64,000 nt of DNA from Moniliella sp. 'wahieum'. Its lineage: Eukaryota. Of the stretch, positions 2,285-63,802 are shown in pieces. The notes under the pieces are model-generated. The model had not been told where the DNA came from. It searched no databases and saw nothing but the letters and a program-made list of their open reading frames with translations. The stretch lies in NCBI GenBank assembly GCA_003971905.1, contig RSEE01000014.1, forward strand, positions 682,001 through 746,000, given 5' to 3'. The stretch's first letter is position 1. Each line of letters begins with the position of its first letter. Made by a program: the position numbers and the translations under genes.

Positions 2285-2515
2285 CATTTCAACGTTTTCA
2301 ACTTGCATACTTCCTGTTCGAGCTGCCGAAAATCCCTCAACTTGAACGTGAGAAGCCTGTCTCCCCACTTGCACCGATAACGGACATACCCCACATCTGC
2401 ATATGGTGCCTGCCATAGCAAGCCACGCCTAACACCTCCAAGGGGGCGTTGAACGTGGTGAACGAGGAGGTTGAAATGCTAGCGTTTCAACCTTCAAGCT
2501 TCAACGTTCAACTGA
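2285..2515. repeat. TNA-palindrome heptamer cluster (ACGT/AGCT cores)
   Basis: e.g. TCA-AGCT-TCA-ACGT-TCA at 2494-2510, plus several degenerate TCAAC/TTGAAC units. Confidence 0.7.
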
Positions 2516-2860
2516 TGAAGTGTGCCTTGGGGAGCTGTCGGCTACACGCCAAGATGCGAGCACTCTAAAGTACGAATGTAAATGTATGAGAGTGCACGAA
2601 GACAGGTACTCAGGATGCTGACACATTCAAATGGTGCGCTTTCAAGGCAGGAAAGTGCTCGCTAGACAGTGGACAAGAAACTCAAACAGAAAGAAGCGCC
2701 CACACCATGGGGCAGGACACCATTTTGTCGCAAAAACGTGTCTATGACCAAAGTCATCTTCCATCAACTTGAATGGTGGCTCAAAAGATGGCCAAGCAAA
2801 CAATCAGCACTACTGGGCAGTGCAACGGTCGAGAGTGCACGACCAAAGGAGGGTGTCCTA

Positions 2861-3816
2861 TCAAAGCAAAAGAGCACCCAGAATAGCGCCACCAACAATC
2901 CCGCCAACGATTGCCCCATTGTTGTTCTGCGTACCACCATGGGCTGGCCATTGCCAGAGCGGATGCACTTCAAATGGGGATCTGAATCAAGTATACGAAT
3001 TGGTCGGGTACGCCGGGCGGTGGTGTGTGGGGGCAGTACAACCACATCCTTACCATCTGCATCGCGTTGTAGAAAGATGGGCCGGCCCGTGCGGGTGACC
3101 TCAGAAATGCGCGACTCAAACGGGCCCGAGCCTGAGCGAAAGTCTCGCCTGCTGGCTTGCCCGGCCTTGCGTTCTTTGGAATCCAACCTGCGCTTTGGAT
3201 CGACGATGAGGCACAGACGATTGTTCCCGGTGCGTAACGCATCCTGAGCTTTAATCACCTCGGAGGCGGCGAAGCCAAGGAAGTGTCAACTCCCTGACTG
3301 TGCATCCGCTGTATGGTATTTTCCCACTTGGTCACCTTCCGTTGCTCAGGGCTGAGCGAAGCAAGATACTGTGGATCCAAGTAGGGGTGCACCCATGTGC
3401 TGCGACCCGCCCCGTTGTTGGCACGTTGGTCGACATAAAACGGATGTCCGCAGTTGGAGTCGAATTGGCGGATCCAACCAGGCGGAAGCGGTCGCTGGTC
3501 CTCTCCGGGAGCAGGGGAAGACAAAAAGGAAGCCGAGCTTGGGCCAGCATTTGCGGGGGGCAGTAGCGGTGGCGATGTGGGAAGATGGGCCTACTGTCGG
3601 AGGGGGACCGTGGGCAGGATGGAAGCCTGGTAAGGGCGGTGGGTTACCGTGGGAACTATGGGCTGGATGGAAGTCTGGTAAGGGCGGTGGGACAATGCCG
3701 GCGGGAGCGCTCTGCGAAGGAGTGACACCAAGCGCCTCTTCGTACGAGGGAGGGAGGTCACTGGGCGGGGGGGCACGTGTGGTGCCGGCGGCAGGGGCTG
3801 GACCGGAGGTGCCCAT
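2861..3816 (-). CDS. Pro-rich WW-domain protein with C-terminal hydrophobic glycine-rich tail
   Basis: PLPPGWIRQFDSNCGHPFYVD...STWVHP is a WW domain. N-terminal LPPSYEEA; C-terminal NNNGAIVGGIVGGAILGALLL*. Assembled across frameshifts. Confidence 0.75.
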
Positions 3817-4340
3817 GGCGGTGGGGATAGGACAGAGGGTTTGAGCGGGGCAGAGGTGGCTGTGCTCTTGACAGCCACCCACCCACCACCTCATGCGATC
3901 GGGCGTCAGACATCAGGCCTCAGGCGTCCGATGACCCTCAGAGGCGTCAGGCTCATGCAGGTGTGCGCTCCGGCTAAGCTTTCCGGCCGAGACGCTTGCT
4001 TGCGAAGGGTGGATGAGCTCTTGACTTGTAAGCTTGACGCTTGAATGGCCTCCTGATTGGGTTCTGAGGCTCCCGAATGATTATCATCACGTGATGGGGG
4101 GGCATCCTATCAGCTAGCGATTCTCACGGTCCTCTTAGCTAATCAGATAAATCGTCTTATCACATGAGACGTGGGTCATCACATGTCCCATGCCCTGATC
4201 ATGTGATCATCGCTCATCGATCACCCTAGCATCCCCTACCCCACAGGCCTAGGAGGCATGACGCATTACATAAGCGGCCATCGCCCGCTCAGCTCCACAT
4301 GTGCCCCTCCCTAGACGCGCTGCTCATCGCTCCAGCCGCC

Positions 4341-8177: not shown

Positions 8178-8648
<471 letters not shown>

Positions 8649-12031: not shown

Positions 12032-14043
12032 CGTGTTGATGAGACGACGATATGATCTGGCGGGTCCTGACGCCCTTGCGATGGAATTTTGCAACAGTGT
12101 GGTGGTGGTGGTAGCGGGTATAGAGGAGAAGCCAAGTAACAACGCCTATCGTGACATTTCCTTTTGATCCAGCCGCCAGGAGAGGTTGCTCCCGCGGATG
12201 TGACTGGGGCATTAATAGGACTTGGGTGGGTCAAAGGCTTCGCCCCTGATGAGGCCTTACAATTAATAACAGAAGACCCTAGAGCTGGTCCATCCTATAC
12301 TCGGGCCGCCCAGAGTAGCTCAAGACGTAGAAGGTAAGGTTCCCACCCCCTGCAGGTGGTGTGGCTGTTGAGCCAGGGTGGCTCGTGCGTTGGTCAAAGT
12401 CCCTTCAGTTCCTCCTCAGACCTAGGTGTTCCGTTATCTTCTCTCTCCTGTTTTTCCTTGTTTTCCGCAGCCTTTAGCCCCTGGTGGCGACTCGCTGCTT
12501 GATGCGCGATGTTCCTCTGTAGGCGTTGGTGGTTGGCTTGGACCACACACTCCACCAGTGGGATTGCATCGCCCTAGAGGACCATCAGGGCTCCAGGTCT
12601 CATTCAGTGGTGGCGGCGGCAGAGAGGCTCTGGTTAGTGTGGCTGCGCAAGAACTTATTCTATGCGCACTAAAACGAAAGAGAGATGAAGTAAGGCATCT
12701 GTAAGAGCGGAGGAACCCAAGGATTTGGGTGTAGAACCTCTGTGGAAATGCAGCAGAGCAATGCAATGGCGGTGGTGGTGGTTAAACGTTAAGGGATAAG
12801 GTCTAAGCCTTATATACTTCACCTAGAGGAGACAGGGGTTAGAACAAGCCGGAGTATACAAGTGGAGGCTTCGGAGGTTGAAAAATAAGGGGCAAAGGAT
12901 GATAATCGAGATAAGGCGCCTTGGCCTATGTAGGGACCGCCGGTCGCAACAGTTCAACACATCGTATCAACACACGGCGCAACCCTCTCCTCACACTGAA
13001 GACGCGGCCGTGGTGGTCCTCTGGGTTGTCCAACAAGCCCGATCGGACTGTGGGCAACGAAGCCTGTTGTGGATGCACATGTTGGGGACTACCTGACTTG
13101 TTAATAGCACAGACTTCATGTTGAGATGTGTGAGAAGCTGTATAGGGAGATGGGAATGGACTGGAATGGGCTGGAATGGCACGTTGCCTTTAAGCCAGCC
13201 CCACACAACACCTGCAACCCTTTTAACGAGCGCTCAGATAGATGGATTGATGCAGGTGATGCGTGTTTTTGTCAGGGGCTGGAGGGATCTCGATCCGGTT
13301 GATCATGCAAGTTGGGGCACGTGCCCTGCATGGCGATATGCGTGCGTGGCCAGCGACCGGTGACCAAGAGTGACTAGTGACGCATCGCGAAACTGCCAGC
13401 GAGCGCAGTGCACCACTCCCACACAGCCCCCGCGCGCTGCTTCAGCTTCACCCTTCGCCCAGCCAAGCTTTTCACCCCCACGCCCAATCGCAACTACTCG
13501 CCAGCAGCTTCTTACCACCGTCGATCCATTATCAGCGTTGTCAACGCGTCCGGCCTCAGGCCTCATGCCTGGAACCAGGCCCCCAGCCCCATCATTTCGC
13601 CATCACATGTCACAGGCGCCCAGCCCTAGGGCCTCACACTGGCTTTCGCGTCGCGCGGCGCCACAGTTGTTATAATCGTCGCGCCCGTCTTTGTTTGGGT
13701 CTGCCTTCGTGCCCCATTCCTCCCCCCTGTCTCCTGTCCACAGTTTGCACGACCCCACGGGTAGTCGACCGACCCTCATGCCTCTGATCGAGACAGTGCC
13801 CCTCTTTGGTCACGATGACCTCGATGACCTTGATGGTGCCACAAGAAAGCCGTCAGATCTCAGATCGCACAGCAGACGCGTCTGTCTCACCCGAGGTGTA
13901 GTCTGCTCCAGGAAGCATCGAACGGCTGCAGTATATATCATCTATCATCCCCCTCTCATATTTCCTTCCTCTTATCTTTCGACCTTTCCTCCTTCTCCCT
14001 CCTATCCGTTTCTCCCCGACCTTTTTGCTCCATTCGCGCTGCC

Positions 14044-16225: not shown

Positions 16226-18026
<1,801 letters not shown>

Positions 18027-18849
18027 CTACTGGCGCAATGCCTTGGGCCGTGCGCCGATCATGCGATCACTAGTGCTCGCCACTAGTCACTGTGACATGT
18101 GACTAGTCCTCTGGCGAGGGAACCGCATTGGGCGAGTGGAGCAGCTGGGCTTCTGCGGCGCAATTCAATCGTAGCGCCCTCCGAATCCTACGCGAGGCGG
18201 ATTGGATGTTTTTTGATGCACCGCAACTGTCCCCGTGCCTCGTGCGCGTTGCTCGCTCGTCCGCTTAATAAATGTTCAAGCCATCCCCAGTGCTGTGCTT
18301 TGGAGCCGCCCAGCAGGCCCAGCGCCCAACGTTGGGCGCCCAACGGTACGCCAAAATACGCCAAATTCCAGGCTCCGCAAACCCTGGGCAGCTGTAAATA
18401 CTTAGAGCCACCTGCAACCCAGCACGTGGTGGCGTGGTGGCGTGCCCAATTCATTTCCTAATCGATAATCGATCCTAGTTAATCAGCAGCTCATCTACAG
18501 CGCGCACATTCGCATTCAATGCATTCAATATTCACCCGAGAGTATGCCCATCGGAGGACAGGATAAAGCATTAGCTGTACCGTCATGCCATCAGGAATAA
18601 CAGAACGTGTGGCCATAGATGTGCCCCGACGGGTGTGCACATTCTAGATCAGGGGCCAAGCGGCAACGCTCAATCGCTCAGCCCATCGGGTGAGAGTGTG
18701 TATCCAGCTGTGTAACATCTGAGTCCATGTGAGCCTCAGCGCTGAGCCCACACAAAAAGATATAGATGCTCTCTCTGTGTGTCTCCGCGGGAGTGCTTTC
18801 CAAAAGCACGAAGTCCGCAGCAGATAATACAACTTTCCCGTACCAGCCT

Positions 18850-18903
18850 TTAAGCTTTAGGCTTCAAGCTTCAAGCTTCAATCATGACTTCAAGCTTCAG
18901 CTT
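18850..18903. repeat. (TCA-AGCT)n heptamer array
   Basis: TCA-AGCT-TCA-AGCT-TCA at 18864-18880 and TCA-AGCT-TCA at 18890-18899. Confidence 0.85.
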
Positions 18904-19695
18904 CTGTGGAGAGATGGCAATTGCGGGGGCACATACCATCACACAGCGGCATAACATGCATATAATGGGGCGCACCGTCTGGATCTCACACCACACGCCA
19001 AGACTCTCTCTCCGCACAGACGATTATTGTTTGTCAGTGATGAGGTTGAATTGTCCGAGGCCGTGTGCGGGTGCCGATCCGCGCACTTGTGCGTCGTTGA
19101 GCCTGGCCCGTGCGTTGGGCCAAAATATGCCCCCAAGCTTTTCAGTACCAGTACCCAGTCATCCAGAGGCCTGGAAGTTCGGTTGTTGTCTCCCTTCTGT
19201 CTGAACAGTTGCGCAACCACAGGGGCGGTGGCAACTTGCTGCTATGGATGTCCCTCTCGGTAGGTGTGGAAGACCAGAGAGCAGGCAGTTGGTGGTGTAT
19301 TGTTGCACTTGAGCCCCAGAGAGGCTGCGGTCCAGGAAGGAATATTGAAAGGAATGCATCGGAAGGATCCGGAACTGGCGCCCACTACACTGCCAGTGTG
19401 GCGCCACAAGGTGATGTTGGCTGGACAACCACCACAGCGAAAGTGCGATTGCATCACCCTCGAGACAATTGTGATCCTCAGGGGCCGTGGCCTCTGCTGG
19501 CGGTCATCTGGGTGACCATTACTGCACGCAATGACGCGTGACGCCTTTGTCAAAAACTCCCCCCAGGAAATGGCGCATCTGTTGGTGCTCGCGTGCCGCC
19601 GACTCATTCATTGACTCGCGATCCATGCGAGCCCCTTTACACCAGTGGCCAGTCATTCTCTGTCGCCAATATTCAATGACAACCCTCTCCATAAC

Positions 19696-19795
19696 GGTCG
19701 GATGGTCTAGCTGGTCATGACGTACGCTTCACATCCTGGAGCAACAGGTCTCGTTGAGACGCGTAAGGTCCCCGGTTCGATCCCGGGTTCGATCA
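19696..19795 (+). tRNA. tRNA-Val(CAC) with a 26-nt intron (19734-19759)
   Basis: Acceptor GGTCGGA/TTCGATC, D-arm TGGTCTAGCTGG, anticodon stem TACGC/GCGTA around TT-CAC-A, T-arm CCCGG-TTCGATC-CCGGG, followed by a T-run Pol III terminator. Confidence 0.93.
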
Positions 19796-20081
19796 CTTTT
19801 TGCAGTAACACCATTTTTTTAGTGTTCGGCTATCCAGACTCGGCCTCGCCTTCAGGCCTAAGGCCTAAAAGGAGACGCGTTGCTTAGATAGATAAATCGA
19901 TCCGATAAAGTGTGGGATAAACAGTCAGGCCAATGATAGCCGTTGACATTACAAGAGGGAGGATGAGGATCAAACAGAAAGTATGGTGGGATCATCAACG
20001 TAAGACGACAAGCAGAAAAAACGAGGGGACAAGATAGACACTTATAGAAAAGGTGAGGCTTAAAGAGGCAAGGTCAATGGC

Positions 20082-28033: not shown

Positions 28034-28259
28034 ATATCCTACCGTCACCTGCTACACTCTCCCTACATTACGATGAATGCCAGCTTAAACCTCCTTCCTC
28101 TCCATAGTGTGCATCTGGGATCTGACACCGGCCCGGGTATATCGAATGGCAGAAGGGTGCCTTGTGTTAATCAAGGGGGTCTAAGATCTAAGGGCCAGCA
28201 CCTCGGATCCTGTGACCCTCCCTTACACATCCGGGCACAGCGCGAGGATACTATCCCCT

Positions 28260-28526
28260 GGCCTAAGGCCTAAGGCCTAATGCCACTCATCCTTATCTTC
28301 CTCAGTCCAGGTTCACGTTCCACTTGAACAACCCAGCTGCTGTCTTCTCCGCACTGCATAACTGAGGCAACGCCCAGATAATCACGTGACTACCGTAGGC
28401 TCGTGCACTCGCATGCCACATGTCACGTGTGGCGGTGCATCACACGGATTTCGGTGACCGGTGACCGGTGACCGGTGAGTACGTTGAGTATTCAAATGAA
28501 GCGCTACGCGTCACGCGTCGCGTCAC
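28260..28526. repeat. Heptamer arrays (GGCC-TAA)3, (TGA-CCGG)3-TGA-GTAC and CGCG-TCA
   Basis: Read directly at 28260-28280, 28455-28482 and ~28507-28526. Confidence 0.9.
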
Positions 28527-29930
28527 GAGAGGCTGGCGGCGTGCACACGGCTTTCAATATCGTGCCCCGTACAAGGCGCAGGCACCAGGACACTGTGCCA
28601 GGTATATGAAACAGGTCTTGATCGGCTCGATCAGCTTGACTCACTCGCTCCTCAAAACCCCCGAAGTCGTCAAAAGAGGTTCGGGCAACCTATATCAAAG
28701 CCAATATCGCGGGGAAGAAGGCTGCGATATAATGAGGTCCTAGTGAAGAGAGACGAACCATGGCCTGAATGCATATGACAAAGGCCCCTGAGATATGAGA
28801 GCCAGGGTGCCTGCGCATATACGCCACACCGCCCCCACCACAACCACACTGCACAGCGGGAGAGGAGAAGGTCTCTTCTATCATCTACTTACTACTCAGG
28901 GGCTGAGTGAAATGCATATGGACTCGTTTTTGCTCCAACATTCGTGCAAGTATTAGGATGTCGTTCGCACTAGAGAGCACAACAGAGACAACGGCGTACG
29001 CTCGTCCAATAAGCGCTAAGCCTAACGACCAATCTAATTTGATCCGTCGACCTTTTTACGTACAACAACAGGACAAGGACCGACGAGCAGCTCGCCGACG
29101 GTGGGGGGGCATATACATCCAAGGTAGCGCCAACGGGAGTAAAAGCAGAAGGCGCCGATATATATTGCGCCCTGTCCCGCTGAAAAAACGTCCGTTCTTC
29201 CAAGTTCAACGTTTAACGTTTAGTTCATTAATCAATGTTCCCATGCTCACAACCTTTTTATACACTGTGGGTACCTGTAGCCTTATTGCATGAAAACGTC
29301 ATGAACTGATTTGGATATAGTGTTAGCATTGCAATCCAGGAAGATAACACGTAACAACTTACCAGGACGTGTGCACACACATTGGTTTGAAATGGGAGTA
29401 CGCAATCGATGATTTCGATGATCGGTGGAAATTAAAAGCAGAGCGAGAACCTTATATACATTTGCCCGTTTTGTGTATGCCCTTTGACCCGTTTGACCCT
29501 CGAAACAGCCTCACGCGACCCGCGCTTCAACGCTCTCAGGGTCTTAGGCTGAGGCGGGAGGGGCAGAGCCCCTTTGTACAAGGGTCCCCAACAGGTCCCA
29601 CCCACACATTTCTCGGTGTCTTCTCCCACTCCCCAATATCTTCATCAAACCCTTTCTCTCGGACCTCGGTGTACATATCCCCTGTGCCTCGACCTCAGGG
29701 TCCTTAATCCTTAGACCTACTGTTGTCACCGCTGATATCTCTCCGCCATCGAAAAAAGCTTCAATTAGCACCCATCTCTCACAGTCAGTTCCCCACCACA
29801 GAAGCCACCAGTCCTAATATAGACGTCCCTCCTCAGGCCTCAGGAAACGTTCCGCCATAAAGCTCACCCCCCCACAACCTATTCTACTTCACTCCTCATC
29901 AACCACAACCCCTATTCTCCCTCCGCCCCC

Positions 29931-32369: not shown

Positions 32370-33314
32370 GTGTGGATCCTACCCCATCAAAGAGCCACCA
32401 CAGTCAACCCCGTCATCCCCCCTGCCCGTCATCAACGATCGGCCTCACGTCAATACCGGCAAGGGCCATTTCATCTCCTCAGATGTAATACGTCGTTATA
32501 TTCCCAACACCTGTTTTACGTTCTGCTACCCTTCCCCATCTGGACTTTACATCATTTATTCTCGTTTGCTTTCACTCCCCCCTCCCCCCTTTTTCGTATC
32601 TCTTCCCGTCTGTGCTCTGGCCTGAAGCCTCAAGCCTCAAGCCAAACCTTGGGGGGAATGTGGGTTGTGTGGCCTTTATTCCTCTCAAGCCTTTTTCGAG
32701 ATCGGACATTTGCTCCAAGGCACTCAACGCTGCCCTCTTGATGATCATTTCCTCACGATGTTTTTCACGTTTTCTTGCCAACGAAGATCATGACGATTGA
32801 TGATGATCGATGATACCAAAACCATATAGAAGGCGTCATATGCTCACACCAGCGCGCCACCGACAAAAAGTATACAATCTCGATAGAAGATCGCATACTA
32901 TGTAATGCTATGATGGAGGGCAGGGTGGTGATGATGCATGGGAGAGGGTAAACAGACAGTGGTACAGATGTGGAGTTTCTGTGTTTTGCGGGAACAGAAT
33001 GGGAGAGAAAGGAACATTGGACGACAGGTATATATATACCACAAGGGGCCAACTCGTCGGTCTGACAACCTGCAGAGATCTGGGGTGTGGAACCCGCTTT
33101 TGCGGTTGGACGTAATAACGCGTTTCTGTCATCGATATGACCATCGCATGAAGTGCATGACGCGCTACCCTCACAACACGCATCTGGCCAACTAGTTAGT
33201 AGTCACGTATACCCTTAGGCTCAGTGCTCATTATTCGCATCCGCATCCTCTCGCGCGCTTAATTTGGTTTGGGATGAAGCTTGAAGGAATGGCAGGTGCT
33301 ACCGGGTCCTGTGT

Positions 33315-33366
33315 TGACATGTGACATGTGACAGGCCGGCAGTAACTAGTAACTAGGAACTAGTAA
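33315..33366. repeat. Heptamer arrays (TGA-CATG)2-TGA and (TAA-CTAG)n
   Basis: Read directly at 33315-33331 and 33343-33366. Confidence 0.9.
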
Positions 33367-34560
33367 CGCACTTCGCCTTCTGATGGGGTTAGGTGTATAA
33401 GCTCTGGGTATAAGCGCGTGAGATCGAAGAGAGCCGACAGCAAACGCTGGATGTGCGAGCCGGTCAGGCAATGGGCCTGTTAAGCGTCTGATGTATTATG
33501 GCCCTGTTCGGTTTGCAAACCCATGCATACGAAGGCAGGGGCGGAGGAACCGCAACGGTCGCCCACGTGCTACCTGCTTCCTAGTGAAGCTAGTGAGATC
33601 TGAGATCGAAGTGAGTGTTTGCTTATGCGCGTTGCGCGATGCATGATGCACAATGGATGATACTGGGTGTTCCTATTTCCTATTTAGTAGTTAGTAGGCA
33701 CTGTAGGGTACTGCCGATCCGTCTCGGGCGATCTGCACGCTGACTGGTACGGGGCTAGTCTGGAAGCCAGCTGGAGCTTATATCTTGACGGTGCGCGTGT
33801 GTGTGCGCGTGTGTGTGCGCGGGTGCGTGGTGTGCATGCGGCGTGGGAGGAGTATCAGTGCTCCGCTGGGCATGGGGCCACTCTGCCCAACGTCCCTCCG
33901 CAAGCCCCTGCCGCACACCTAGGCCGAGTGGAGCCAGTGGCGCGACCAGGCATGGCACGGCAGCATGCAGCCCGGCAGCACGGCAGCACGGCAGCAGGCG
34001 GCAACACGGCAGCTCACGGCGGGCTGGCGTGTGCATATGCCCAGGACGCGACGGGGATGGAACGGGGGCAGTGTGTTCGATGGTGCCTTGACATTGAGAC
34101 CTGAAGCTGGAGGCTTGGAGCTGGCCGGAGGCCGCAGTCAGACACGCAGTCGATCATCTGCTGGCACGTCAGGGCACACCCTTCCGTCCTTCCCGTTCAA
34201 GGTAGGCTAGGCCCTCGGGGCGGAGTCCTGCTACGACATGCACTACAGCAGCCTACACAAACTCTCTGAATGGCATCCGCGAGATCAATATTCAATGAGA
34301 TCACCTTAGGCATCATGCATCATGCGCACCGGTCACCAGCTCCCCAGCCGCGGACGCTCAGTCTGGCCCAGCCAGCCCTTTGCCCTCTGCGTCGATCGCC
34401 GCTTGCTACCATCAACGTCCAACCTCCAGCCCGTCCGCCTTGCTGCAATCCCCACCGCTGGCTTCGGTGTTCACTTTTCCCCTCCTCCGTCTTTCCCACC
34501 TGCCCTCTCCCTGCCCACAACCTCAGTCTTGCACATCCGCCTACCACACGCTCTTTCCTC

Positions 34561-38669: not shown

Positions 38670-38727
38670 TGACGCGTGACGCGTGACGCGTGACGCGTGA
38701 CGCGGTGACGCGGTGACGCGGTGACGG
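38670..38727. repeat. (TGA-CGCG)4 followed by (TGA-CGCGG)3
   Basis: Perfect tandem units read directly. Confidence 0.95.
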
Positions 38728-40232
38728 AAGGTGAGGGTGGAGTGGGAATCGCGCCCAAGGCGGCGGCAGTGGAGGGCTTAAGCTTAAGAGGGCTCGAGGT
38801 GGAGACCGAAAGTGCAGAGAGTGCTTTGTGTCACATGTCACATGATGCATCGGCGGCCAGTGCCCGTCGGCTTCAATCGCGCTCGGATGTGAACAGGTGG
38901 GCATCCAGGGGCATACATGGCGGTTATGAGACTCGCGTTGTAAGCCTCTCGATCTCAGATCTCAAATCTCAAATGTGTGCATGTGATCGGTGATCACTGA
39001 TCGAGGGTCGATCTCTGACAGCGTTGCAGGTGGATGTAACAGTCGGGGCTAAACGAGGGAGACCAAGGTCCTGTCAGAGGCGGGGGGAAAGGCAAGATCG
39101 TTCGTGGGAGGAAACAGAAGGCATCAGGCAGAGAACAGAAGCAAAAGGGAAGGGAAGAGCGAGAGACACAGGATGCGGAATTGGAAATTGGAGCGAGCTT
39201 AGTCATTCGGTGACAGTGAAGGACGCAACCAATTGAGGCAGGAAGAAGTTGTGCGTCTCACCGGGTCACCTGGGCATGGAACATGGTGGATTGACCTTCA
39301 CTTCGAGCTCCACCTACCAACCGTCCGCGTCATCGACGTTCAACGTTCAACGTCCACGTCCAACATGTGTTGTCAACGTTCACAATGAACTGAACTGGAG
39401 GGGCTGAAGCTGCTGAAGGTGAAGCGCTGCAGCGGGCGTACGCGTAAGATCTAACAGCGTAAGCACTGAGGCTGCCGGCTTACCGCCTAAACGTTTAAAC
39501 CCCAGCCCACTACCAAATCTGAATCTGACGTCACTTTAGCCCAGCGAGTGGGCACTGGCGAGCACTGCGTTTGGCAGCGACGGATACGTGTTCAATGTTG
39601 GTGGGACTCGGGTGTACACCACTTGCTCGCCAGGCCAAAGTGGCTCGAGCGGGATGCAAACCAAATTTGCGGACTGCCTGATGATATCACACAGGCTCTG
39701 CTCCACACCCACCCACAAGCGCGAGCACCAGGCCCAGCAGGCAGCCGCTACCCAGCACAGTAACCGCACGCACCAGCCCCGTCTTCTTCGCCCCCAGTCG
39801 GGAGGTGATCGGCGTCGGTCGCATCAGCATCAGCCCTTCTCTCGATGTCGGCGCCCTTCTCAGCTCAGGCTGAGCGTAGCCGCAGCGCCCGAACGTACCC
39901 AACCCATCACAGTGCCCCTAAGGGCTGTTTCTGCGTTGTTCATGTTGATTGATGATGTCGATGATGGGGCGAGCGCCCCAAGTGGGTACAGCCGCGCTCT
40001 CTCAGCCCTGGACCTGAGCCCGAAGAGGTCTCTCTCAGCACACTCACATAGCTCACTCAATAGTCACTGGATCCGCAATACTGTGGCCGAACATCCCCGT
40101 CTCCAAAATCAAACCGTAAACGGCAAGCCTGGGACCAGCTTGCTGTTGCGTCCGTGCGCCTCGCAGCTCTCAGCAGTTCTCAGCACCTCTCAGCTTCGGT
40201 CGGTGCTCATCGACATCTCCCACCTCCTTGTC

Positions 40233-48524: not shown

Positions 48525-49997
48525 TCCTTCGAGTCTTTCTGGGGATGATGGGGAAGCGGAAGGTAAGTACCACTGATTAGGGCAACCACGCGTGCCACGA
48601 GTTACTCACCGAGTACCGACGGTGCTGGGTAGGAAGCCCAAGGCAATGGGTAGGCCAAAGGAGAACCAGGAGTGATGCCACACACTGGCGCCGTGCAGGA
48701 CCAGCGTATGCGGACAACAACAGACTGGCCGCCTGAGGGCGGGTGTTTATTGCGCCTTACAACCCTATCATGATTTGGGTCACGTGATCGGGGAGTGCGT
48801 TGTGCCAGTATGTGCTGCCTAATTTAATTTCACGCACATCAATGACCGCGTTCACCCTCAGCAACACAGCAACACGTCAAATCGGCCAAGCGCACGAAAA
48901 GAGCAACTACAATAGCGGATGCACTGGGCACTAGCTTGACGTATGGTGGTTATCAACATCATCAGCCTTGCTACTTCAGAATGCTCGCAGAGGCCTCCAG
49001 CTCTTAAGCGTCATTTCTGTCTTGGTGTGGTGTGTGATATAACCTTGTTTTCATTTTGGAAATATGCTCCACTTTAAGTATTTCCGGTACGCTCCACAGC
49101 AGTAGTAGCATATTGCAATGACTCCGCATACGAGAGGAAACAACGTATACATCAGATTCTGCCTGGCTGTGTCCTCGGATGAGGTGGCAAAAGACAATAT
49201 GGGGGCAGGGTGCACTGCGATTGACCATGCAGCTTCAATGCGCTGCGTATTGTGAGACAACTGTGGTATCTGAAGTTGTCTTCACATGTCAAGGATGGCA
49301 TATGCTGGTGGTCGAAGAGCTGTTCTATTTCTGGGAGGAGATGTACTGGCCTAACTTCAATAAACTACAACCTTCGACCTCCCTGACAAATGGGAGCAGC
49401 AGCAGCTATTCACCGGCAGCACTTAGCACTAGTGTACTGTGTTGTATATTGGTACCATTTACAGAAAGAGCTTAAAGCAAGTGGGAAAAAGAAACGCTGC
49501 ACTTGTAAATTCAGGCTCGCTTATCCACCGAAGTGTGCTGCTCGCTCGTGTTGACAGCTAGCAAGTAGGAGACCAGCAGAGCTGTCAGAAGGTTGGAGGG
49601 CCCCTCTCTGTGGTTCCCGATATCCGTTTCCGAAGCGAATGTGGAGTGTGAGTGGATACAAATGAGCGCAGCGACACATGTGACGGAATGGATCATTTCG
49701 ATCCATTTTGAGACTGCTTTCCTCAGAGCAACTATAGTAGTAAGGAGTCTTTGGTGCTGTCAATATCTTTTGTTAACCGTCTCGTGGTGGTATAGTCCCC
49801 CCGCACGCCAGCATGACCAAGAAGGAAGGGTGGCTCTTGAGTGCGTCCGTTGGTGCTTGGCGTTCTCCAAGAGCCCATGCAGCTGCTTCTCCTGGCGCTG
49901 GTTGTATATACCATGTTGCAAGAGTAATCGTCATAGCCCAGCACATGAAGCACACGATAAGCGTGCTGCACTATGTGTTGCATGGTCAAGCAAGCCA

Positions 49998-50259
49998 TTA
50001 AGCTTGAAGCTTGAAGCTTGAAGATGCATGTTGCTCGAGCAAAAAGTAGACTCTACTGGTCGTCCTTCGTTGGTGCTGGGTACTTGCGACTGATGTGTCT
50101 TCCATAGGCCAGTGGTGGGGCGAGCAGAGCTGCGACCACGCAGACAGGGTCTTACAAGTGTCGTTGCCGTATCGCCAGCGCAGCCAGGCCCAGCACTGGC
50201 CCAGCCCCCTTGTCCAGCACTGACCTTGACATGCGTGACATGTGACATGTGACATGTCA
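49998..50259. repeat. TTA-(AGCT-TGA)3 and (TGA-CATG)3-TCA arrays
   Basis: Read directly at 49998-50021 and 50236-50259. Confidence 0.9.
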
Positions 50260-50727
50260 AGGTGCTTGCGATGCCTGAAGAGCGGCGAGGTGCCTTCGGA
50301 CAACATGCAGCTGCCCATGCGTCAATTCACGGTGGCGGCGCAAGATATGGGATTCCCCAACAGGGGTGGCGCCTGCGGGTAGCCGAAGCAGGCGCGTGGC
50401 CAGTGTGTTGCGCTGGTGCCCTGCCGTGCCCCCTTTGGGCCTGGGGTTGGCGTGACGCGTGATGCGGCCGCGTGACCGGTGACCCCACCGAGACTGCATG
50501 CCAGATGCGCCGCATCTCCGCGGCTCGCATGGCAAGCGAAGGCTGCGGAGGGGGGGCAGCAGCGCCGCATCCCCTGCGCCGCACCCGCCTGCTCTCTCTG
50601 CCTCCCCCAGCAGCCCCGCTCGGCCAGCGACCATCGACCATCGCCTGCCCAGCGCCGAGTGCTGCGACTTCCTTCCGCCGACCTATACCCCCCCGTGTCT
50701 GGTGTCGGCCATCCCATAGCCTCTCGC

Positions 50728-55439: not shown

Positions 55440-58400
55440 GTGTCATTTGAACATTGAACATTGATATTGAACGTTGAACGTTGAACAGGGCGAGGTTGTC
55501 CAATGCGTGATGGATGCTTTGAACATTTGCTGTGTGAGATCTTTGAGATCTTGGGATGTTCAAGCTTGAAGCTTGAAGCTTGAGAGGGGGAAACCAAATT
55601 GTGTTTCATTCAGTGATACCAAGTCACACCAACGTACCCAGCACAACAGAACACAACCCAGGGCGCTGCCGGCGTCTCAGATCTCAGTACCTCAGGGCCT
55701 CAGTACTCAGTCTGAGTGAGTAGTGGGTACTCAGACTCAGTCACGTTAAACGTTAACGTTTAACGACGTTCACGCGTTCAACAGAGCCCCGACCTGCCAG
55801 CCCTTCCCCGACACCTGCTCCACTCGATATGAGTTCCAACTTCAAGGAGAGCTCGATGCAGTTCTGTGCTATAGCTTCCGGAGGTCAGATATTGATGCAT
55901 TTCTCTTTGGGACTGGACTTCCCCCGGATCCATGGGGACGTGAAGAAGGACGGGATGACGCGCCACGCGCGTCACGGCGTGAGATGTTGAACGTTGAATA
56001 ATAAACACGTTGACGCGCTCTTCATTGTGAGAACCACAAACCCTTTGACTCAGTTGTCATTTTTCGGGTGCGTTTTGCTCTGCATTCGATATTCATATGC
56101 TCCCGTGGTGCATCAAAATCTGAACGTTCCACGTTCTCAACAACAACGTATCACCATTTTTTGTTGACCCCGAGGGCCCACACACGCTGGGAGAGTTGAA
56201 TACATTGAATACGCAGCGCGAGCGTTGCAGCGAGGTAACCGGTAATGTGGGAAGAGCATGAGTAATTGGCACATGTCATGGCGCGCCACCGTGGTTATTG
56301 AACACGTTTTAAGTACACGCACCAGAATATCGGCTCTTTATGCCACTCAATATTTTGAGCGTACTGTGACAAGCACGGTCTAATTGTCCTTCAGCTCAGT
56401 GCTTTCTGGGCGCCTTACCTCTCACCTTCGTCTATAAGAGCAAATGTGGACATGAATCACTAGTCACTAGTCACCATTGAAACCCATCTTGTGGCCTGTA
56501 CCCGAGAAGGAACAGAGGAGGCAATCCACGAGCTAGACTGAGGAGGGCGAACCCTCAAATTTATTGGTGCACTCTATTGTGACACGCGTGTCCTGCGCAT
56601 AGTACGGATTATCGGGTAAGGCGAGAGAAGTATAGATTTGGTCTCATATAATTTGGATGGAGCTGTTGTACGCGCACCCAGGAGACATGGATATGTTACA
56701 AAAGGGCCTCAAGGAGGAGACACATGCACCGAGACGCCTCTGGGAGCAGCACATCATCTATCGCAGTTCTACCAGACGGATTGGAAGAATAAGAACGCCA
56801 AAAGTCGAGGACGCATCTCTTCTAAGATTGTTTTATCCTCTCTACTAGCCACTACGCATGTGCATGGTGCGTAATGCATAACCATGTAAGAGCCGTCAAC
56901 CTGGTGAGAAGGTGTTTGTTGATAATTGGGAAAAAATAATGTAGGAGAGGGGACTCGCTGTTGGGAACGCGGCCCATCGAGTTACCATCTGCCCAACGCC
57001 GCTTTGTCAATTCATCCCTATCACTTTGGGGGTTCCGGTTATGCAATGCCCACCCGATTCGGAGTTGTGTGGCGGCGGTGCCAGAAGAACGAGTACGCCG
57101 ATACCTGGCAACCGGTAACTAATAGGTAACTAGTAATGCATAATGATAACTGGTAACTCGTTACGCGTCACGCGTTACGCTCTGGTAACTAGTTACTGTT
57201 GCTAGCTTCCATGCACTCTATGAAACAGCGAATGTAAGGCACCGCGGCGCACACCAGGGCACAGCAGCCCCACACGCCATGTGTGCATGATGCATGCCAC
57301 AAGTCACCGGTCACCGGCAGCCCATATCACTCGCTCTGCCTGCATCATGCATCCGTGCATCAGCGCATCAGCCATCGCGGCATGGGCGCATACTGTGAAG
57401 CTGGTTTTAAGCCGGCTATGCGCGACCGAGTCCTGTTTCAAGCCCCAGCGTCTCGTTCAAATATTGGCGATATCGATTGTCCAGTCAACGTGTCAACATC
57501 CTAGACCCTGGCTCAATACTCAGGTACTGAAGTACTGCTGCACCGATGTTCTAATGCATAAAGGAGTGACATGTGACATGTGACATGTGACATGTGACGC
57601 GTGACGTGTGACAGGGGACGCATGATGCATGGTGTGTGATGCTGTGAAGTGGCCGGCCACATATGCGCAGCCTTGTGCAGTGCGTAATGCAGTACGCCAG
57701 CAGCCAGGACGCCCTGGTGTAGGATATGAATTCCGAGGTGTGAGATCTGAGAACAAGCCGCAGGCGACCGGACTGGACGTACTGGACATGCATGCATCAT
57801 GCATCAAGCTTCCAAGCTTCAAGCAGGTTAGCGCTTATAGCCTCAAGAGAGCAAAACCCCTTGCTCCGCCTTGACGCGTACGTAAGACTTCCCACTGTTC
57901 TAGCTGTGGATTTGTTTTACTTAGGCTCGGGGGGACTAAGGCACAGGTCTCAGACCATAGGGTCTCAGCCGCTTCAATGTAGCTTCAATATTCAATATAC
58001 TGACTTGCATTGCGTGCTGGTGCTGATGTACTGATGGTACTGGCACTCAACGTCTCAACGTACTAATGCCTGTACAGGGGCACTGAGCGCCTGCGCCTGT
58101 TGCTCCCAGTAGTCAGACTCAGTACGTACTCAGTGTACTCAGTTATTCAGTTCTGACACGGAGACATATTGACACCCTTCGCACGGTGCATCACGCATCG
58201 TTAGTGATTAATCATTAATCATTGCATCGCATGTCACATGTCACATGCCACTTCTCCTCGACGGCTGAGCGGGCGCGCTGAGCGCGCTCAGGCTGAGCTG
58301 AGGGTCCTCCCAGTCAGATCTCAGCCGCGCTGAAGCTGAAGCTTGAAGCTCTGGCTGGCACGAGTCGAGTACTCTGGTTAGTAGTTAGGAGTTACTAGTT

Positions 58401-58760
58401 ACTAGTTCATAGTTGCTTTAGGTTACTCAGAGTACTGAGTAAATACTCGGTTGAACGTTGAGTGTACGTTGAGTCGTACTCATTGTACTCAGTACTCAGT
58501 ACACTCAAGACTCAGTGAGTACTCAGTGTACTGAGTACCTGAGTACTGACTGACACTGAGATGCATGTGAGATGCATGATGCGTGGTGCGTGGTGCGTGA
58601 TGTGTGATGTGGTGCGTGTGATGCATCACATGCGTCACATGATGACCTGGTCACCGGCACTGGAAGGCACAGCTGTGCCGTTGCTGCCTGTGATCGATGA
58701 TCTAACATGTGGCATGCGAGACCGGGTGACCGGTGACCGGGTGACCGGTGACCAGCAGCT
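55440..58760. repeat. Dense field of TNA-palindrome heptamer arrays between divergent FEN1 and medA
   Basis: Arrays with cores ACGT, AGCT, GATC, GTAC, CTAG, CGCG, CCGG, CATG, TGCA, ATAT, TTAA and TCGA. Confidence 0.92.
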
Positions 58761-58917
58761 GTCGGCGTCGCTGCTACGTACACCCTTAGGTACCCAAGCC
58801 CGCCTGGCAACACCCTCCCTTCCGCCTCTCCCCCGCCCCCCGCTTTTGCCCTCGCAACATTCTTCCTCCCCCCGCCGCCCCTGCCATCGCCACCACCACC
58901 ACCCGCCTCTCCTCCCC

Positions 58918-60526: not shown

Positions 60527-63395
60527 TACGAAGCTGGTCATTTTCGCAGTGTTGGCTTTCTCCCTATCTGAGTGCTGTGCAAGTACACTTCATGCATTGC
60601 CTTACCGTTTGGCTGTGGCTCTGGTTGGCGTGCTATGTTCTCTGCCCCGCCCCGCGTAACGGAGCATTTGTTGTATTGCATTTCTTTTTTCGGGCGCAAC
60701 AAGTCTTCAAGCCCCATCTTGCCCTCGAGATGCGGGCCATTTCTCTAATGGTTGTTCTCCCAAGCACTTCTGATCCTTCTTCCCTTTCTGGGTAATCCCC
60801 TCCCCCTCTTGATTTGAGTTTGTCTCGTGCCGTCCCCGTGATGTAGGGGCTTTTGATCTTTTCCGCCGATTTCTCTGTCTCCTGTAAAAGAGTTGACTGG
60901 CTCTATCGGCTTTCGCTTTTTTCTTCTGGCCCTTCCCTGCCGCGCCCAGTCCCGTGCGTTCTTCGCCCCAGCTGGGTTTTGGCGATATTTAATCCCACTC
61001 ATGTAATCTTCTCCGATGGGATTGTCGCTTGCGGGTGTGGATGAGATTCGAGAGGATGGATGTATCAGCCTAAAGGGCACGACCATTGTATACTGTTTGC
61101 TGCCTCTCATGTCTCTGATGTTAAAAGGCAGTGAGAAGCGATGGGGCCCGCGAGCATTCTTGCCCTGTTTTCTTGGTGCTTTTATATCCGGTAACTAGCC
61201 GTTGGATAGGATGTCAAACAATATAATAAGTCCAGGAAGAGTAGCTATGCTGGTCATTGAAAGATATTTTATTTGACTCCTTTTCTGTCAATTGTTTGCC
61301 TCGTCCGAATGTCTCTTCATTTGTCTTGTCACTTCTCCCCCAGTCCCATCGGAAGCTATTGAACTCGGCCTGCTTGACCTGAACACCACATTGATATATT
61401 TATCCTTGACGCTGATGGGAGCTAAACTGCTGAGCTCTGAGTTCACCGGCGTTCACCGCGTTCAACATTCAACGACGCGCTCCGCCGCTCATCAGCGCTC
61501 GACGCTCGGAAGACGTGTCTACGCAATACAGCTTGCGCTCACCGCTCACCGCTCGCCGCCTCTGAGACGTCTGTGTAAGTCAAGTCAGACAACCCAGGTC
61601 TGGGGTTTGTGTATTGAATTCATGACATTTGCAAGACTCTAATAGGCATCATCAATTAAGGACAAAAAGAAATAAGGCGGCGCCTATATATATACTACCA
61701 CACATGACAGGCTTTTGCTCATCCGGCGTGTGCTCTGCCAACTTGTTGTGCCAACCCAATTAGGCAAATCCAAAGACAGGTCAGGGCCATGTTCCTACCC
61801 CCACATTCATATACAACCCAAAAGTAAATATCGATGAGCTTGTGGTATAATGTGAGCGATAAACCGTTTCCAACGACATGTGAAACCGTTCCTTCTAGTG
61901 CTCCCCCTTTTTGACAATGTATTTGTTGATGATTATGGCATAGTTCTCTTTTATTATCATGGCCAGAGGAAAGAACAGATCTTGAGTGTGTCCCTGTGAT
62001 AGTTGTGTTGTTGCTGCATCCACTTTCTCCAACATGGCCCCTCCTTTCCGCGTTGCAAATAATGCTTCACCGTTATCTCCTCGTCCAATAACCTTCACCC
62101 CTTGCGCCCCTTCTCGTACGCTCACATAATGTAATCCACCTCCATACTCACTGTTCCAAACGCTCCGGTGGCCCCATTAAACGATAATTCATACGCCTGG
62201 CCTTCCTCCCCGCCCCGTTTCCTCTTCTTATCCTCCTCCACACAACCAGCTTATTGAGAAAACATGAGTGTTCCAGTTGGAGTGCACAAAAAATGAGAAC
62301 CAGCTTCCGCCCTGAATATTGCAACGTCCCCCGATGTTGGTTTAGGTGCAGGTATAGAAATGAAGATGTGCTCCAGCTATTACGACATTGCTGTGATGCG
62401 GAGAGATGATAGCTTCTCTAGACAGACTCTTTCTGTGACGCTGGTACTAGATCACTGCTGTATCTGGGTGTTTGCGTCTTCATTTGTCCTCCTGCTTTCC
62501 CTTTTCTTCCTTCTCTGTTTTCTCCCCATGCCGCATACCGCTTCCCTCTCGTTCATCCTCCGTGCTCGAGCCACATCCCTATAGTTCTTTCAGACAGCAG
62601 TGTTGTATAGAGGGAGGGGGGACATCTCATTGCAGTCATCTGTGGTCACAGCGCATCGACATTAGACCATACACAGTTGCACTTGGTTAGTACGCGAGGC
62701 ACAAGGGCATACGCAGTGGCAGCTGTGTTGGAGAGACCAGTCTGGACACCCGCTTTTTTTCGGTGCGCTCGAGGCACTTTTAGCAAAAATATAATCCAGG
62801 AAAGCCAGTTGCAACACATTGTGTTGTGCGCGCGCTCAACTACCTCTCGCCACCATTCTGCTTTCACATTGACACTCTAGAGTAGCACACCTGGTTAAGT
62901 TCCCTGCTATATAATACAGCGCTGGCGCTGCGTCTTAAACTCCCCCAGCATGTGCGGGCTGCGGGGTCCTCGAAGCTTGATGTGACTGTTGACGATCAAC
63001 GATCAACGTTCCACGTTCAACGCGGCGTCAGCGCACCAACGTCGTCAAAGCTCAACACAATGTATGAGTGGTGGTACGATCGCTAACTCAATTCTGTGTG
63101 TGTTATACAAGTCACTCCTGTCACGCTTTTCTGTTTTTTTGGCATGCGTATACTGTGTGTGGAGAAGTGACATATACATTTTGACCAATACAGCTGTAGC
63201 AACACACGTGGCACCGCACGCACACGCCCATAATAGAGCTGTAGCCTGTGTTTAGCCGCCTCTGTTTGGCATTGTGAATTGGGTCCATCTCATGATACCT
63301 CCTAAGCCTGAGGTCTGAGGCTTAAGGCAGGCCCGACATGCTGACATTTGTCGGCAACGTATTATCTCGGCAAAAACTCTCATATGTGTCACATC

Positions 63396-63433
63396 TGAGA
63401 TCCCAGATCTCAGATCTCAGATCTCACGCGTCA
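63396..63433. repeat. TGA-GATC-CCA-(GATC-TCA)3-CGCG-TCA array
   Basis: Read directly. Confidence 0.9.
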
Positions 63434-63802
63434 CGAGGGATCTCATCGAGATCAACAAAAAGGCTATCTCTCCCCACCATCAGAGCCTGAGATATCCGGT
63501 CTCGGCCTGGGATTCTGAGATCTCAGATCTGATATCTGAATTAACGTTAATCACTAGGTAACGTCCATTTCATTGGCAGACTTAAGAAGGCTGGGACAGG
63601 GGAACGCTACGTCTAAACCTAACCGTTCATCTTGCGGGGGTTACTTAGGGGCGCCACCAGGGTATAATAAGATTCCTCCAAAAAAAGTTGGTGCCAAAAC
63701 TGTCACAGTTTAGGTCAGCATCGCGTAAGCCACCGGGTGGGCAGCCACCCGTCCCAGCCACCAGCAACAATCGGTGATATTATTTCGTGGAAGGGTCCCA
63801 GC

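Follow-up and report, generated by a model that had tools for sequence, protein, structure and literature searches.

The window analysed here is a 64,000-nt stretch of Moniliella sp. 'wahieum' DNA (assembly GCA_003971905.1, contig RSEE01000014.1, positions 682,001-746,000, forward strand). The fungus is a relative of smuts. Spacers throughout the window hold short structures in which T-N-A triplets are separated by self-complementary 4-mers (cores), and we refer to a run of TNA-palindrome-TNA as a chain; there are 91 chains in all, 79 of them independent and used for the flank and coding tests. The chain TCA.acct TCA.AGCT TCA.ACGT TCA lies at 2487..2510, and five independent chains occupy an ORF-poor stretch at 12783..13862. 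Upstream of a minus-strand phosphoglucomutase gene are eight chains with CATG, TCGA, ATAT, AGCT, CGCG and GGCC cores (18093..19868). Seven extend from the 3' end of a Vps4 gene to a GMC-oxidoreductase gene (28182..29842), including (GGCCTAA)3 at 28260-28280 and (CGGTGAC)3.9 at 28452-28478, and seven more lie downstream of the latter gene (32804..34322), with (TGACATG)2.7 at 33315-33333 and (TAACTAG) at 33341-33356. The six chains from a succinyl-CoA ligase beta gene to a GAPDH gene (38670..39454) include the longest array, (GTGACGC) in about 8 copies (38669-38726), which changes to an 8-bp step. Between RPL4 (minus) and Rot1 (plus), five chains at 49282..50482 include (AAGCTTG)3.4 at 50000-50023 and (GTGACAT)3.3 at 50235-50257, the latter closing with TCA to form a perfect palindrome. 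The largest cluster (55468..58751; 31 chains, 37 units) occupies the 3.1-kb divergent spacer of an XPG/Rad2-family gene (minus) and a DUF7082 gene (plus), where about 15% of the bases fall within perfectly recognisable junction structures. Finally, TCA.GATC TCA.GATC TCA.CGCG TCA, TGA.GATC TCA.GATC TGA and TTA.ACGT TAA are found at 63410..63545. At every example coordinate in the first-pass annotation, heptamer arrays were present as described, to within a few bases.

With 79 chains in 64 kb, non-coding DNA carries one every 250-300 bp or so. None of the 79 fell inside an ORF segment with Pfam support (17.4 expected), and 65 lay outside every ORF of at least 150 aa. The structures avoid coding DNA, and they occur in promoter-type and 3'-type spacers alike. 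Their intergenic position, with the largest cluster in a divergent promoter spacer, would suit arrays selected for a dimeric transcription factor (bZIP or TALE-homeodomain-like) that reads TGA/TCA half-sites at a 7-bp phase, and TGAC and GTCA do resemble bZIP half-sites. We nevertheless regard such selection as very unlikely: clusters also lie 3' of genes (28182-28527 and 38670-39454), most occurrences are lone 10-12-bp structures, the middle base of the triplet is free, with TAA enriched per site as much as TGA, and the cores are unconstrained and flank-derived. Binding arrays, as proposed in the first-pass annotation, give no reason for the flank-copied half of each core. A technical origin in assembly or sequencing, with no point in its favour, deserves practically no credence; the arrays are short (at most 50 bp), varied and confined to non-coding DNA, and their flank-dependent rule matches no known artefact.

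Abundance was compared with an order-3 Markov background, using 20 simulations for exact arrays of period 7, 8 or 9 and 30 for the TNA-N4-TNA and spacer-length counts. Exact period-7 arrays of at least two copies numbered 61 in the 64-kb window (2.95 expected) and covered 1045 bp (42 bp expected), with a weaker excess at period 8 (10 vs 0.95) and period 9 (9 vs 0.4). In 36 of the 61 the unit was TNA plus a 4-bp palindrome, a form that accounts for 2.7% of primitive heptamers overall. TNA-N4-TNA with any N4 occurred 274 times in the window (135 expected) and with a palindromic N4 121 times (9.0 expected), which bears out the proposed enrichment of palindromic over non-palindromic cores. Palindromic N4 with the identical N in both triplets numbered 96 (2.3 expected), and with complementary N, giving a perfect 10-bp palindrome, 16 (3.2 expected). 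Among the spacer lengths tested (2, 4, 6 and 8 nt) the palindrome effect was confined to 4, as had been claimed; palindromic spacers of 2, 6 and 8 nt showed no clear enrichment in the window (42 vs 30.6, 5 vs 2.5 and 1 vs 0.4).

The fixed triplet had been described as TGA/TCA, sometimes TAA/TTA. Indeed, all four were enriched (TGA 39 vs 1.3, TCA 36 vs 1.1, TAA 16 vs 0.2, TTA 5 vs 0.13), and the fixed part is wider than TGA/TCA, namely T-N-A with free N, which matches a symmetric target-site preference. Together the four TNA triplets gave 96 against 2.8 expected and the remaining 60 triplets 92 against 58.6 in the window, with no enrichment of C-N-G or G-N-C in the all-triplet count. Fourteen of the 16 possible palindromic cores were seen, spread over 96 loci, GCGC being an addition to the 13 listed previously as a minimum. 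AATT and TATA were absent from the 96 loci, and AT-only cores were depleted. Since the 14 observed cores have near-even frequencies, the cores cannot have come from the ends of just a few elements. Half-palindromic cores were also in excess (40 vs 14.9 expected in the window).

The elementary product differs from a plain 7-bp duplication, as half of each palindrome is an inverted copy of the adjacent flank. For a site xyTNAuv the main product is xyTNA-uvv'u'-TNAuv, or the mirror form xyTNA-y'x'xy-TNAuv. Across the 79 independent chains, with a chance expectation of 1/16 per side, the core half equalled the left flank only in 26, the right only in 25, both in 12 and neither in 16, giving a match in 63 of 79. 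The 173 same-N TNA-N4-TNA pairs included the exclusive classes keep-left (17+10), keep-right (18+10) and both flanks (27), each against at most 0.1 expected, and just 7 plain non-palindromic 7-bp duplications. The elementary run measures 12-13 bp, below 14, and 44 of 67 single-core runs were shorter than a full 7-bp duplication. Neighbouring unlike cores trace to opposite flanks of a single site: at 2487..2510, around one ancestral TCA, the left flank CT accounts for AGCT and the right flank AC for ACGT, and in the first chain at 63410 the site has TC on its left, the source of the GATC cores, and CG on its right, the source of the CGCG core.

These junctions bear on two further explanations. 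Ordinary heptamer microsatellites might arise if self-complementary units formed hairpins and slipped or expanded more, with quasi-palindrome correction keeping the cores perfect. In the array strands 6 of 7 positions can self-pair, some arrays reach 3-8 units, half-palindromic cores are in excess as well, and depletion of AT-only cores would be expected if pairing strength matters. However, 62 of the 91 chains contain a single core, the 44 short runs fall below two full units, flank-copied core halves and inverted dinucleotides are not slippage products, and enrichment is limited to T-N-A and absent from other z-N-z' triplets; we consider this origin improbable. The first-pass annotation inferred that an enzyme drives the process, as opposed to plain slippage or the copying of one repeat family; that general inference is supported. 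Formally, TNA-xx x'x'-TNA also equals a 3-bp duplication plus 2+2 terminal nt of an inverted-end element, as in footprints whose TNA duplications enclose the last 2 nt of both element ends (Tc1/mariner-style, or imprecise PIF/Harbinger or CACTA excision). Element termini are often CA..TG or GG..CC. Kyakuja termini, for example, are CA..TG (available part of PMC12730594). Such an origin seems highly doubtful: it would require 14 or more families, each with its own termini, at near-equal activity, would leave both the flank match and the 7-bp direct repeats unexplained, and Tourist/PIF elements excise precisely (available part of PMC4561436).

Besides the main product, the window has 14 junctions in which 2 inverted nt accompany a direct repeat of 7 bp (0.5 expected). 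TNA is exactly central in 6 of the 14, against 0.05 expected, and none of the 14 has an 8-bp direct repeat, 7 bp being the maximum. Examples are GATGACG + CG + GATGACG (439..454; TGA central, 9-bp step), TTTCAAC + GT + TTTCAAC (2287..2302; TCA central), GATGACC + TC + GATGACC (13814..13829; inverted nt from the other flank), GCTGAAG + CT + GCTGAAG (39403..39418) and GATGATG + TC + GATGATG (39951..39966). In ACTCAGT-ACGT-ACTCAGT-GT-ACTCAGT (58117..58143), likewise with a 7-bp repeat, an 11-bp step retains the inverted dinucleotides of both flanks and the next, 9-bp step retains one, while gt TCA.CCGG|CGT.TCA cc (61441..61459) combines 2 inverted nt of one flank with 1 of the opposite flank. Further variants have steps of +8, +9, +10 and +11 bp, and the minor junctions resemble a footprint spectrum. 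The identical main product would result from a 5-bp duplication that kept P nucleotides on one side; this option is disfavoured only by the rare 7-bp repeats and by the near-absence of TNA-side P nucleotides, with one unambiguous case in the window.

The junction structure is the signature of a 7-bp target-site duplication combined with hairpin-derived "P" nucleotides. On balance, the arrays are probably excision footprints: scars of the repair that followed the departure of a cut-and-paste DNA transposon, or of members of one transposon family, targeting nnTNAnn. The element would insert there and duplicate those 7 bp; its exit would cap both flanking ends as DNA hairpins; each hairpin would be opened 2 nt from its tip, leaving a 4-nt self-complementary overhang (uvv'u' on one flank, y'x'xy on the other); and end joining would retain one overhang and drop the other. 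The net gain would be 7 bp, TNA plus a 4-bp palindrome set solely by the local flank. Because the core would depend on the flank alone, this scheme accounts for interchangeable cores in a fixed geometry, with two dyad axes 3.5 bp apart. Further insertion/excision cycles at the duplicated TNA sites would build 7-bp phased arrays, slippage probably adding to their growth once several units exist. The 16 of 79 chains that match neither flank count against the scheme, and the 16 perfect palindromes with complementary N fall outside its main predictions. In the 64 kb we found no element with inverted-repeat ends inside a TNA-centred duplication, and none of the 120 ORFs of at least 135 aa carried a transposase domain; since the window contains neither, the transposon is something that we infer. 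Insertion and excision are read from the sequence of this single window.

The earlier interpretation as a whole is partly supported. Of its three candidates, iterated hairpin-type excision footprints are favoured by the junction structure, although the details differ from the named families: the direct repeat is 7 bp long, against 8 bp in hAT and 3 bp in CACTA and PIF/Harbinger. Repair by template switching akin to HIP1 enrichment may be involved, yet the 7-bp direct repeats would not be expected from it. Alternatively, with no mobile element at all, a host or domesticated nuclease (e.g. PIF/Harbinger- or IS4/IS5-like derived) could cut or nick TNA, and template-switch repair, switching over a few bases and re-aligning on the quasi-self-complementary TNA, could insert a symmetrised 7-nt copy. 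This we hold to be possible but unlikely. No process of that kind is known; it predicts neither the full 7-bp repeats with 2 inverted nt (6 TNA-centred vs 0.05) nor the +8 to +11 variants, and C-N-G or G-N-C should allow re-alignment just as readily, yet neither is enriched. It does fit a window without any element, it would be expected to yield the complementary-N minority (16 vs 3.2) as an inverted copy of TNAuv, the uniform product and extreme density suit a constitutive process better than sporadic transposition, and TNA is the PIF/Harbinger target (available part of PMC4561436).

A literature search found no description of such arrays at this density and regularity, and no paper on the heptamer runs mentioned in the first-pass annotation from Ustilago maydis intergenic DNA. 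Such a density, far above that of any footprints known to us, also counts against the scar reading. Intergenic heptamer arrays reportedly occur in bacteria (cyanobacterial STRR, Xanthomonas GGGAATC, Beggiatoa TAACTGA). Like cyanobacterial HIP1, these repeats resemble ours in being short, abundant and intergenic, with a period of 7 bp or a palindromic motif, but they are prokaryotic, have one fixed sequence per genome, and show neither the TNA plus variable-palindrome rule nor flank dependence.

Among hairpin-forming systems, Artemis preferentially opens hairpins 2 nt from the tip, producing a 4-nt overhang. Transib elements duplicate 5 bp and MULEs 8-10 bp, unlike the sites described here, and no such element or gene was seen in the window. 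To our knowledge, neither is known to target TNA, nor are flank hairpins known for P-type excision. Flank hairpins are formed by hAT, Transib, RAG1 and MULE, and off-centre opening at V(D)J/Transib coding ends and in MULE gives even-centred palindromic additions, as here (available part of PMC5499845). In Ac/Ds and other hAT footprints of plants, Saccharomyces cerevisiae and Candida albicans, the duplication is likewise retained and joined via short, inverted P nucleotides copied from the flank; the C. albicans Ac/Ds junctions are short P-nucleotide palindromes of at most 3 nt with a stereotyped bias (available part of PMC5873905). The near-exclusive outcome in our window, with one overhang whole and the other wholly gone, is more uniform than that, a further point against the scar reading. 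In addition, our palindromes are centred between bases, in contrast to hAT, where the centre is the complement of the element-adjacent base (same source, available part); the hAT repeat is 8 bp and not a 7-bp TNA-centred one, and known hAT footprints are isolated events at studied loci rather than a genome-wide array-forming layer.

With regard to target and duplication, PIF/Harbinger-Tourist elements such as mPing share the T-N-A target with its tolerant middle base, which is also their duplication; mPing excises precisely via complementary 5' overhangs, and footprints are rare (available part of PMC4561436). Precise excision with a 3-bp duplication yields neither flank-derived palindromes nor 7-bp repeats. 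Cut-and-paste elements with 7-bp duplications are described from Basidiomycota, namely hAT7 in Pucciniales and Kyakuja in Agaricomycotina; both are reported from other subphyla, neither was found in the window, and the likeness rests on duplication length (available part of PMC12730594). Galileo, a P-superfamily element of Drosophila, is an animal element with a central A-N-T rather than T-N-A triplet; its duplications, 7 bp and now and then 8 bp long, fall at the odd palindrome GTANTAC and resemble nnTNAnn with its free centre base and the occasional 8-bp steps observed here (available part of PMC4168063).

The 7-bp phasing proposed in the first-pass annotation was borne out when counts in the window were set against an order-3 Markov background. 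There were 61 exact 7-bp arrays with at least two copies where 2.95 were expected, and the positions cited in the annotation indeed carry arrays as described; other periods were less enriched (10 versus 0.95 expected for period 8, 9 versus 0.4 for period 9). Of the 61 array units, 36 can be read as TNA with a 4-bp palindrome, a form that makes up 2.7% of all heptamers. The TNA-N4-TNA count that had been proposed, run on the window, returned 274 occurrences against 135 expected, and 121 against 9.0 for palindromic N4. The effect is specific to this spacing, with palindromic spacers of 2, 6 and 8 nt staying near expectation. The TNA-palindrome observation is confirmed as real.

When palindromic TNA-N4-TNA was sorted by middle base, the same base stood on both sides in 96 occurrences (2.3 expected) and complementary bases in 16 (3.2 expected). 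Only TGA (39 versus 1.3), TCA (36 versus 1.1), TAA (16 versus 0.2) and TTA (5 versus 0.13) were enriched among all 64 triplets, the remaining 60 together giving 92 versus 58.6. Therefore, the constant part is T-N-A with a free middle base: the TGA/TCA and TAA/TTA triplets previously described as fixed are all upheld, within a constant part wider than described. By strand, TGA and TCA are balanced and TAA exceeds TTA, an imbalance of small numbers mostly contributed by a few arrays. The 4-bp palindromes, here called cores, are interchangeable as claimed, 14 of the 16 palindromic tetramers occurring at broadly similar frequency over 96 loci. Cores made of A and T only are depleted (AATT 0, TATA 0, ATAT 3 and TTAA 2 in the window, together against about 19 expected from flank composition), which suggests that it matters how strongly a 4-nt overhang, or a 2-bp stem, pairs.

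The majority of occurrences do not form arrays. A single core was present in 62 of the 91 chains, or runs of TNA-core-TNA units, that hold at least one palindromic core. Around a single core, the length of the periodic run has its peak at 12-13 bp, not at 14 bp or more, and the flank extensions cluster at 0, 2 and 4 nt. A slippage microsatellite would consist of whole-unit tandem copies of pre-existing sequence, with no rule governing the sequence of the unit; in contrast, 44 of 67 single-core runs fall short of two full units, TNA specificity is strict, and the inverted half of the core is copied from the flank. Slippage thus explains much less, although it may still extend the longer arrays.

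The relation between core and flank was scored over 173 TNA-N4-TNA pairs with the same middle base, writing xy and uv for the dinucleotides to the left and right of TNA and primes for complements; each flank class is expected at most 0.1 times. The core equals uv followed by its inverted complement in 17 + 10 pairs, and the inverted complement of xy followed by xy in 18 + 10; both relations are satisfied in 27. Palindromic cores without a flank relation numbered 14 (2.6 expected), and plain, non-palindromic 7-bp duplications 7. Among 79 independent chains, the flank match was on the left only in 26, on the right only in 25, on both sides in 12 and on neither in 16, so that half of the core equals a flanking dinucleotide in 63 of 79 chains, as P nucleotides (hairpin-derived inverted copies of the flank) would, against 12% by chance. 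Where unlike cores are neighbours, both trace to one ancestral site, each to the flank on its own side: CT-TCA-AC gives AGCT and ACGT at 2487, and TC-TCA-CG gives GATC and CGCG at 63410. As the core derives from the two bases adjoining TNA, it is not an independent variable. Half-palindromic cores are also in excess (40 versus 14.9 expected), suggesting that some are decayed scars, and the fact that perfect cores outnumber them points to a process that is recent or ongoing.

A retained target-site duplication with flank-copied palindromic P nucleotides at the joint is the anatomy that defines hairpin-capped excision footprints. Of the mechanisms considered in the first-pass annotation, footprints of a cut-and-paste transposon have the most support once their details are corrected: hairpin-type scars are favoured, and the features of the families it named do not fit, since the repeat is 7 bp long and the palindromes are even-centred. 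In the scheme we propose, insertion would duplicate the 7 bp xyTNAuv, and excision would leave two hairpins on the flanks. Opened 2 nt off the tip, these would yield the self-complementary overhangs uvv'u' and y'x'xy; with one strand ligated first, one overhang would be kept and the mismatched other removed and resynthesised. The outcome would be exactly two mirror products, xyTNA-uvv'u'-TNAuv and xyTNA-y'x'xy-TNAuv, each with a net gain of 7 bp, and the two were indeed observed in equal numbers. At a site already palindromic the overhangs would pair and the gain would again be 7 bp, and revisits, or slippage, could build phased arrays. We infer the hairpin, its opening at 2 nt and the single-strand-first ligation. 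Artemis preferentially opens hairpins at a position 2 nt from the tip. Ligase IV is able to join ends without microhomology (PMC5873905).

The length of the duplication emerges from the minor junctions. Comparing all combinations of word length and inverted length was non-discriminating, as arrays fit every combination summing to 7. An unbiased search for two copies of a 7-mer separated by 2 nt that are the inverted complement of either of its ends gave 14 cases against 0.5 expected, with TNA exactly central in 6 (0.05 expected); the same search of the window with 8-mers gave none. The longest direct repeat is thus 7 bp with TNA in its centre, as a target-site duplication of fixed length would leave, and the main product is compatible with a 7-bp repeat cut back by 2 nt on one side. 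A 5-nt word followed by the inverted complement of its last two bases and the same word, a structure with P nucleotides, occurs 71 times, 54 of them beginning with TNA. A 5-bp duplication with one-sided P nucleotides was dropped as the main model and kept only as a variant, the product that it needs on the TNA side being found in one unambiguous case.

A spectrum of variants accompanies the main junction class, which strongly outnumbers them. Steps (the bp added per junction) of +8, +9, +10 and +11 bp and variants with 1-nt P nucleotides are all present, each with at most 0.7 expected. The +8 bp junctions comprise the core plus the base preceding TNA (8 cases); a +10 bp junction lies at 61443, and a +11 bp junction at 58119 keeps both inverted dinucleotides. 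At 38697-38726 an array alternates 7-bp and 8-bp steps (GTGACGC/GGTGACGC), and at 58720-58753 step switching produces GACCGGG TGACCGG as a 15-bp higher-order repeat; the switching at both places indicates secondary duplication of already compound scars.

Known transposons share parts of this anatomy. The hAT target-site duplication is 8 bp long, nTnnnnAn, and hAT palindromes are centred on a base, whereas here we find 7 bp and even centring; hAT-type base-centred hairpins, considered for the window, were rejected because they would need complementary N or a fixed v. Among 128 revertants, Ac/Ds in Candida albicans left 28 types of footprint, of which two predominated, with P nucleotides of up to 3 nt and palindromes centred on the complement of the element-adjacent base (PMC5873905), a centring that differs from the one seen here. 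Elements of hAT7 with 7-bp duplications exist (PMC12730594, which gives no description of their footprints in the passages on them). Hairpins on flanking DNA are formed by hAT, Transib, RAG1 and the MULE Muta1, and end joining often leaves footprints (PMC5499845). PIF/Harbinger elements (mPing) target TNA with a 3-bp duplication and excise precisely (PMC4561436); such excision would leave no scar, so the motif alone is shared, and the direct repeats of up to 7 bp place the structures outside this class. Indeed, TNATNA is not enriched (63 versus 53.8 expected), and a 3-bp duplication with hairpins, which would give TNATN', was rejected. Galileo of Drosophila willistoni duplicates 7 bp, sometimes 8 bp, at the odd palindrome GTANTAC (PMC4168063), a precedent by which a 7-bp, base-centred palindromic target is nothing exotic in a cut-and-paste element. 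No family in the literature compared combines nnTNAnn with even-centred P nucleotides of 2 nt. A search of openly accessible article texts, which is limited evidence, found no account of heptamer arrays built from TNA and a palindrome, nor of footprint arrays on a genome-wide scale, in fungi. On the footprint reading, these are hairpin-type excision scars with a 7-bp TNA-centred duplication, 2-nt P nucleotides and a density that makes the scars a genome-wide family of heptamer arrays.

Several observations count against a transposon. No insert bounded by inverted repeats lies between TNA or TNAuv repeats within the 64 kb (the six matches were the arrays themselves), and none of the 120 ORFs of at least 135 aa in the window carries a transposase domain. 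Chains are very dense, 79 of them in 64 kb, and the outcome at the junctions varies unusually little. The main footprint scheme does not predict perfect 10-bp palindromes TNA-P4-TN'A, the 16 occurrences with complementary N, some of which end an array (50236, 55560), nor the perfect 14-bp palindrome CTGAGCGCGCTCAG at 58278-58291, which is TGA, a 6-bp palindrome and TCA; the 16 chains without a flank match are equally unexplained. A serious rival, to which we assign a low probability, is an element-free enzymatic process at TNA. There would be no conventional transposon, and a host-encoded, probably transposase-derived nuclease would continually write symmetrised 7-bp insertions at nnTNAnn in open intergenic chromatin. 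If so, one enzymatic rule would create a measurable share of promoter and spacer DNA de novo and would serve as a fast, lineage-specific supply of regulatory variation. Retention of element ends and assembly artefact, like slippage alone and selected binding sites, account for much less; an origin of the cores in element ends was dropped, given the similar frequencies of the 14 cores.

The chains avoid coding sequence. None of the 79 falls in the Pfam-supported ORF segments (14,122 bp; 17.4 expected), and 65 lie outside every ORF of at least 150 aa. Clusters occupy divergent promoter spacers (55468-58751 and 49282-50482) and also the spacers of tandem genes, immediately beyond the 3' end of a gene (28182-29842 and 38670-39454). 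Perfectly recognisable structures make up 3-15% of the bases in seven spacer regions measured, and 1,441 bp of the whole window. Arrays of transcription-factor sites would combine a constrained recognition sequence with promoter location and conservation. Here the sequence is not so constrained, N being free and the cores 14 in number, and the location is mixed, with 5' and 3' spacers both represented. Such a distribution is consistent with a layer of mutation from which selection removes frameshifts, and not with a promoter-specific device. A minus-strand gene at 54291-55411 with XPG_N and XPG_I domains (Rad2/FEN1/Exo1-family nuclease) adjoins the largest cluster, which we take as coincidence. 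Directly after that cluster, a long pyrimidine-rich (C/T) tract at 58780-58900 sits in the 5' part of the open frame 58543-59565, ahead of an ORF with a DUF7082 domain.

The window is nuclear DNA of an Ustilaginomycotina fungus, with a G+C range of 48-61% and about 18 genes on both strands, broken into ORF pieces and placed by Pfam matches on ORFs in lieu of a codon-usage map that was too weak. Scans of the window for tRNA and Rfam families gave zero matches. The succinyl-CoA ligase beta gene at 36976-38271 has its best named matches, at 70-75% identity, in Malassezia, Ceraceosorus, Tilletia and Thecaphora, and two further, short contigs match its protein at 91% and 88%. A metagenome scan with this protein returned 80 loci, all at 73% identity or less. 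In the 39 eukaryotic loci of at least 4 kb among them, palindromic TNA-N4-TNA occurs at 0-4.1 per 10 kb versus 18.9 in the window; the signal is missing from these more distant contigs, which hold no orthologous spacer for comparison. Among the sequences compared, the TNA-palindrome signal is confined to this lineage.

If the structures are excision scars, one transposition and repair reaction has left thousands of natural, sequence-resolved records in this genome; scaled up from the 79 chains in the 64-kb window, a genome of about 20 Mb would carry tens of thousands. From such records one could read, with no experiment, which sites are targeted (nnTNAnn), how long the duplication is, where hairpins are opened and how a basidiomycete prefers to join ends. 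Cut-and-paste elements could then be a main builder both of intergenic DNA and of heptamer 'microsatellites' while leaving nearly no copies. To our knowledge, surveys of fungal simple repeats usually stop at hexamers, and heptamer arrays would thus be missed. If no element exists, the rule points to an undescribed DNA-writing activity. On either reading, promoters that gain 7 bp are likely to contribute to differences in expression between strains.

Other repeats in the window do not follow the TNA-plus-palindrome rule. Two are intergenic, a GT-rich 12/14-bp repeat at 33791-33835 and, at 33955-34020, an array with some 7 copies of the 8-bp unit GCACGGCA. A 9-bp repeat at 63808-63904, ACGGTGGCT, with about 11 copies and a 35-bp higher-order unit, may be coding. 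GCT-rich 3-bp/9-bp repeats with a 117-bp higher-order repeat at 35283-35547 and 35799-35828, where long ORFs run on both strands, have no relation to the TNA arrays and probably represent a coding repeat of low complexity.
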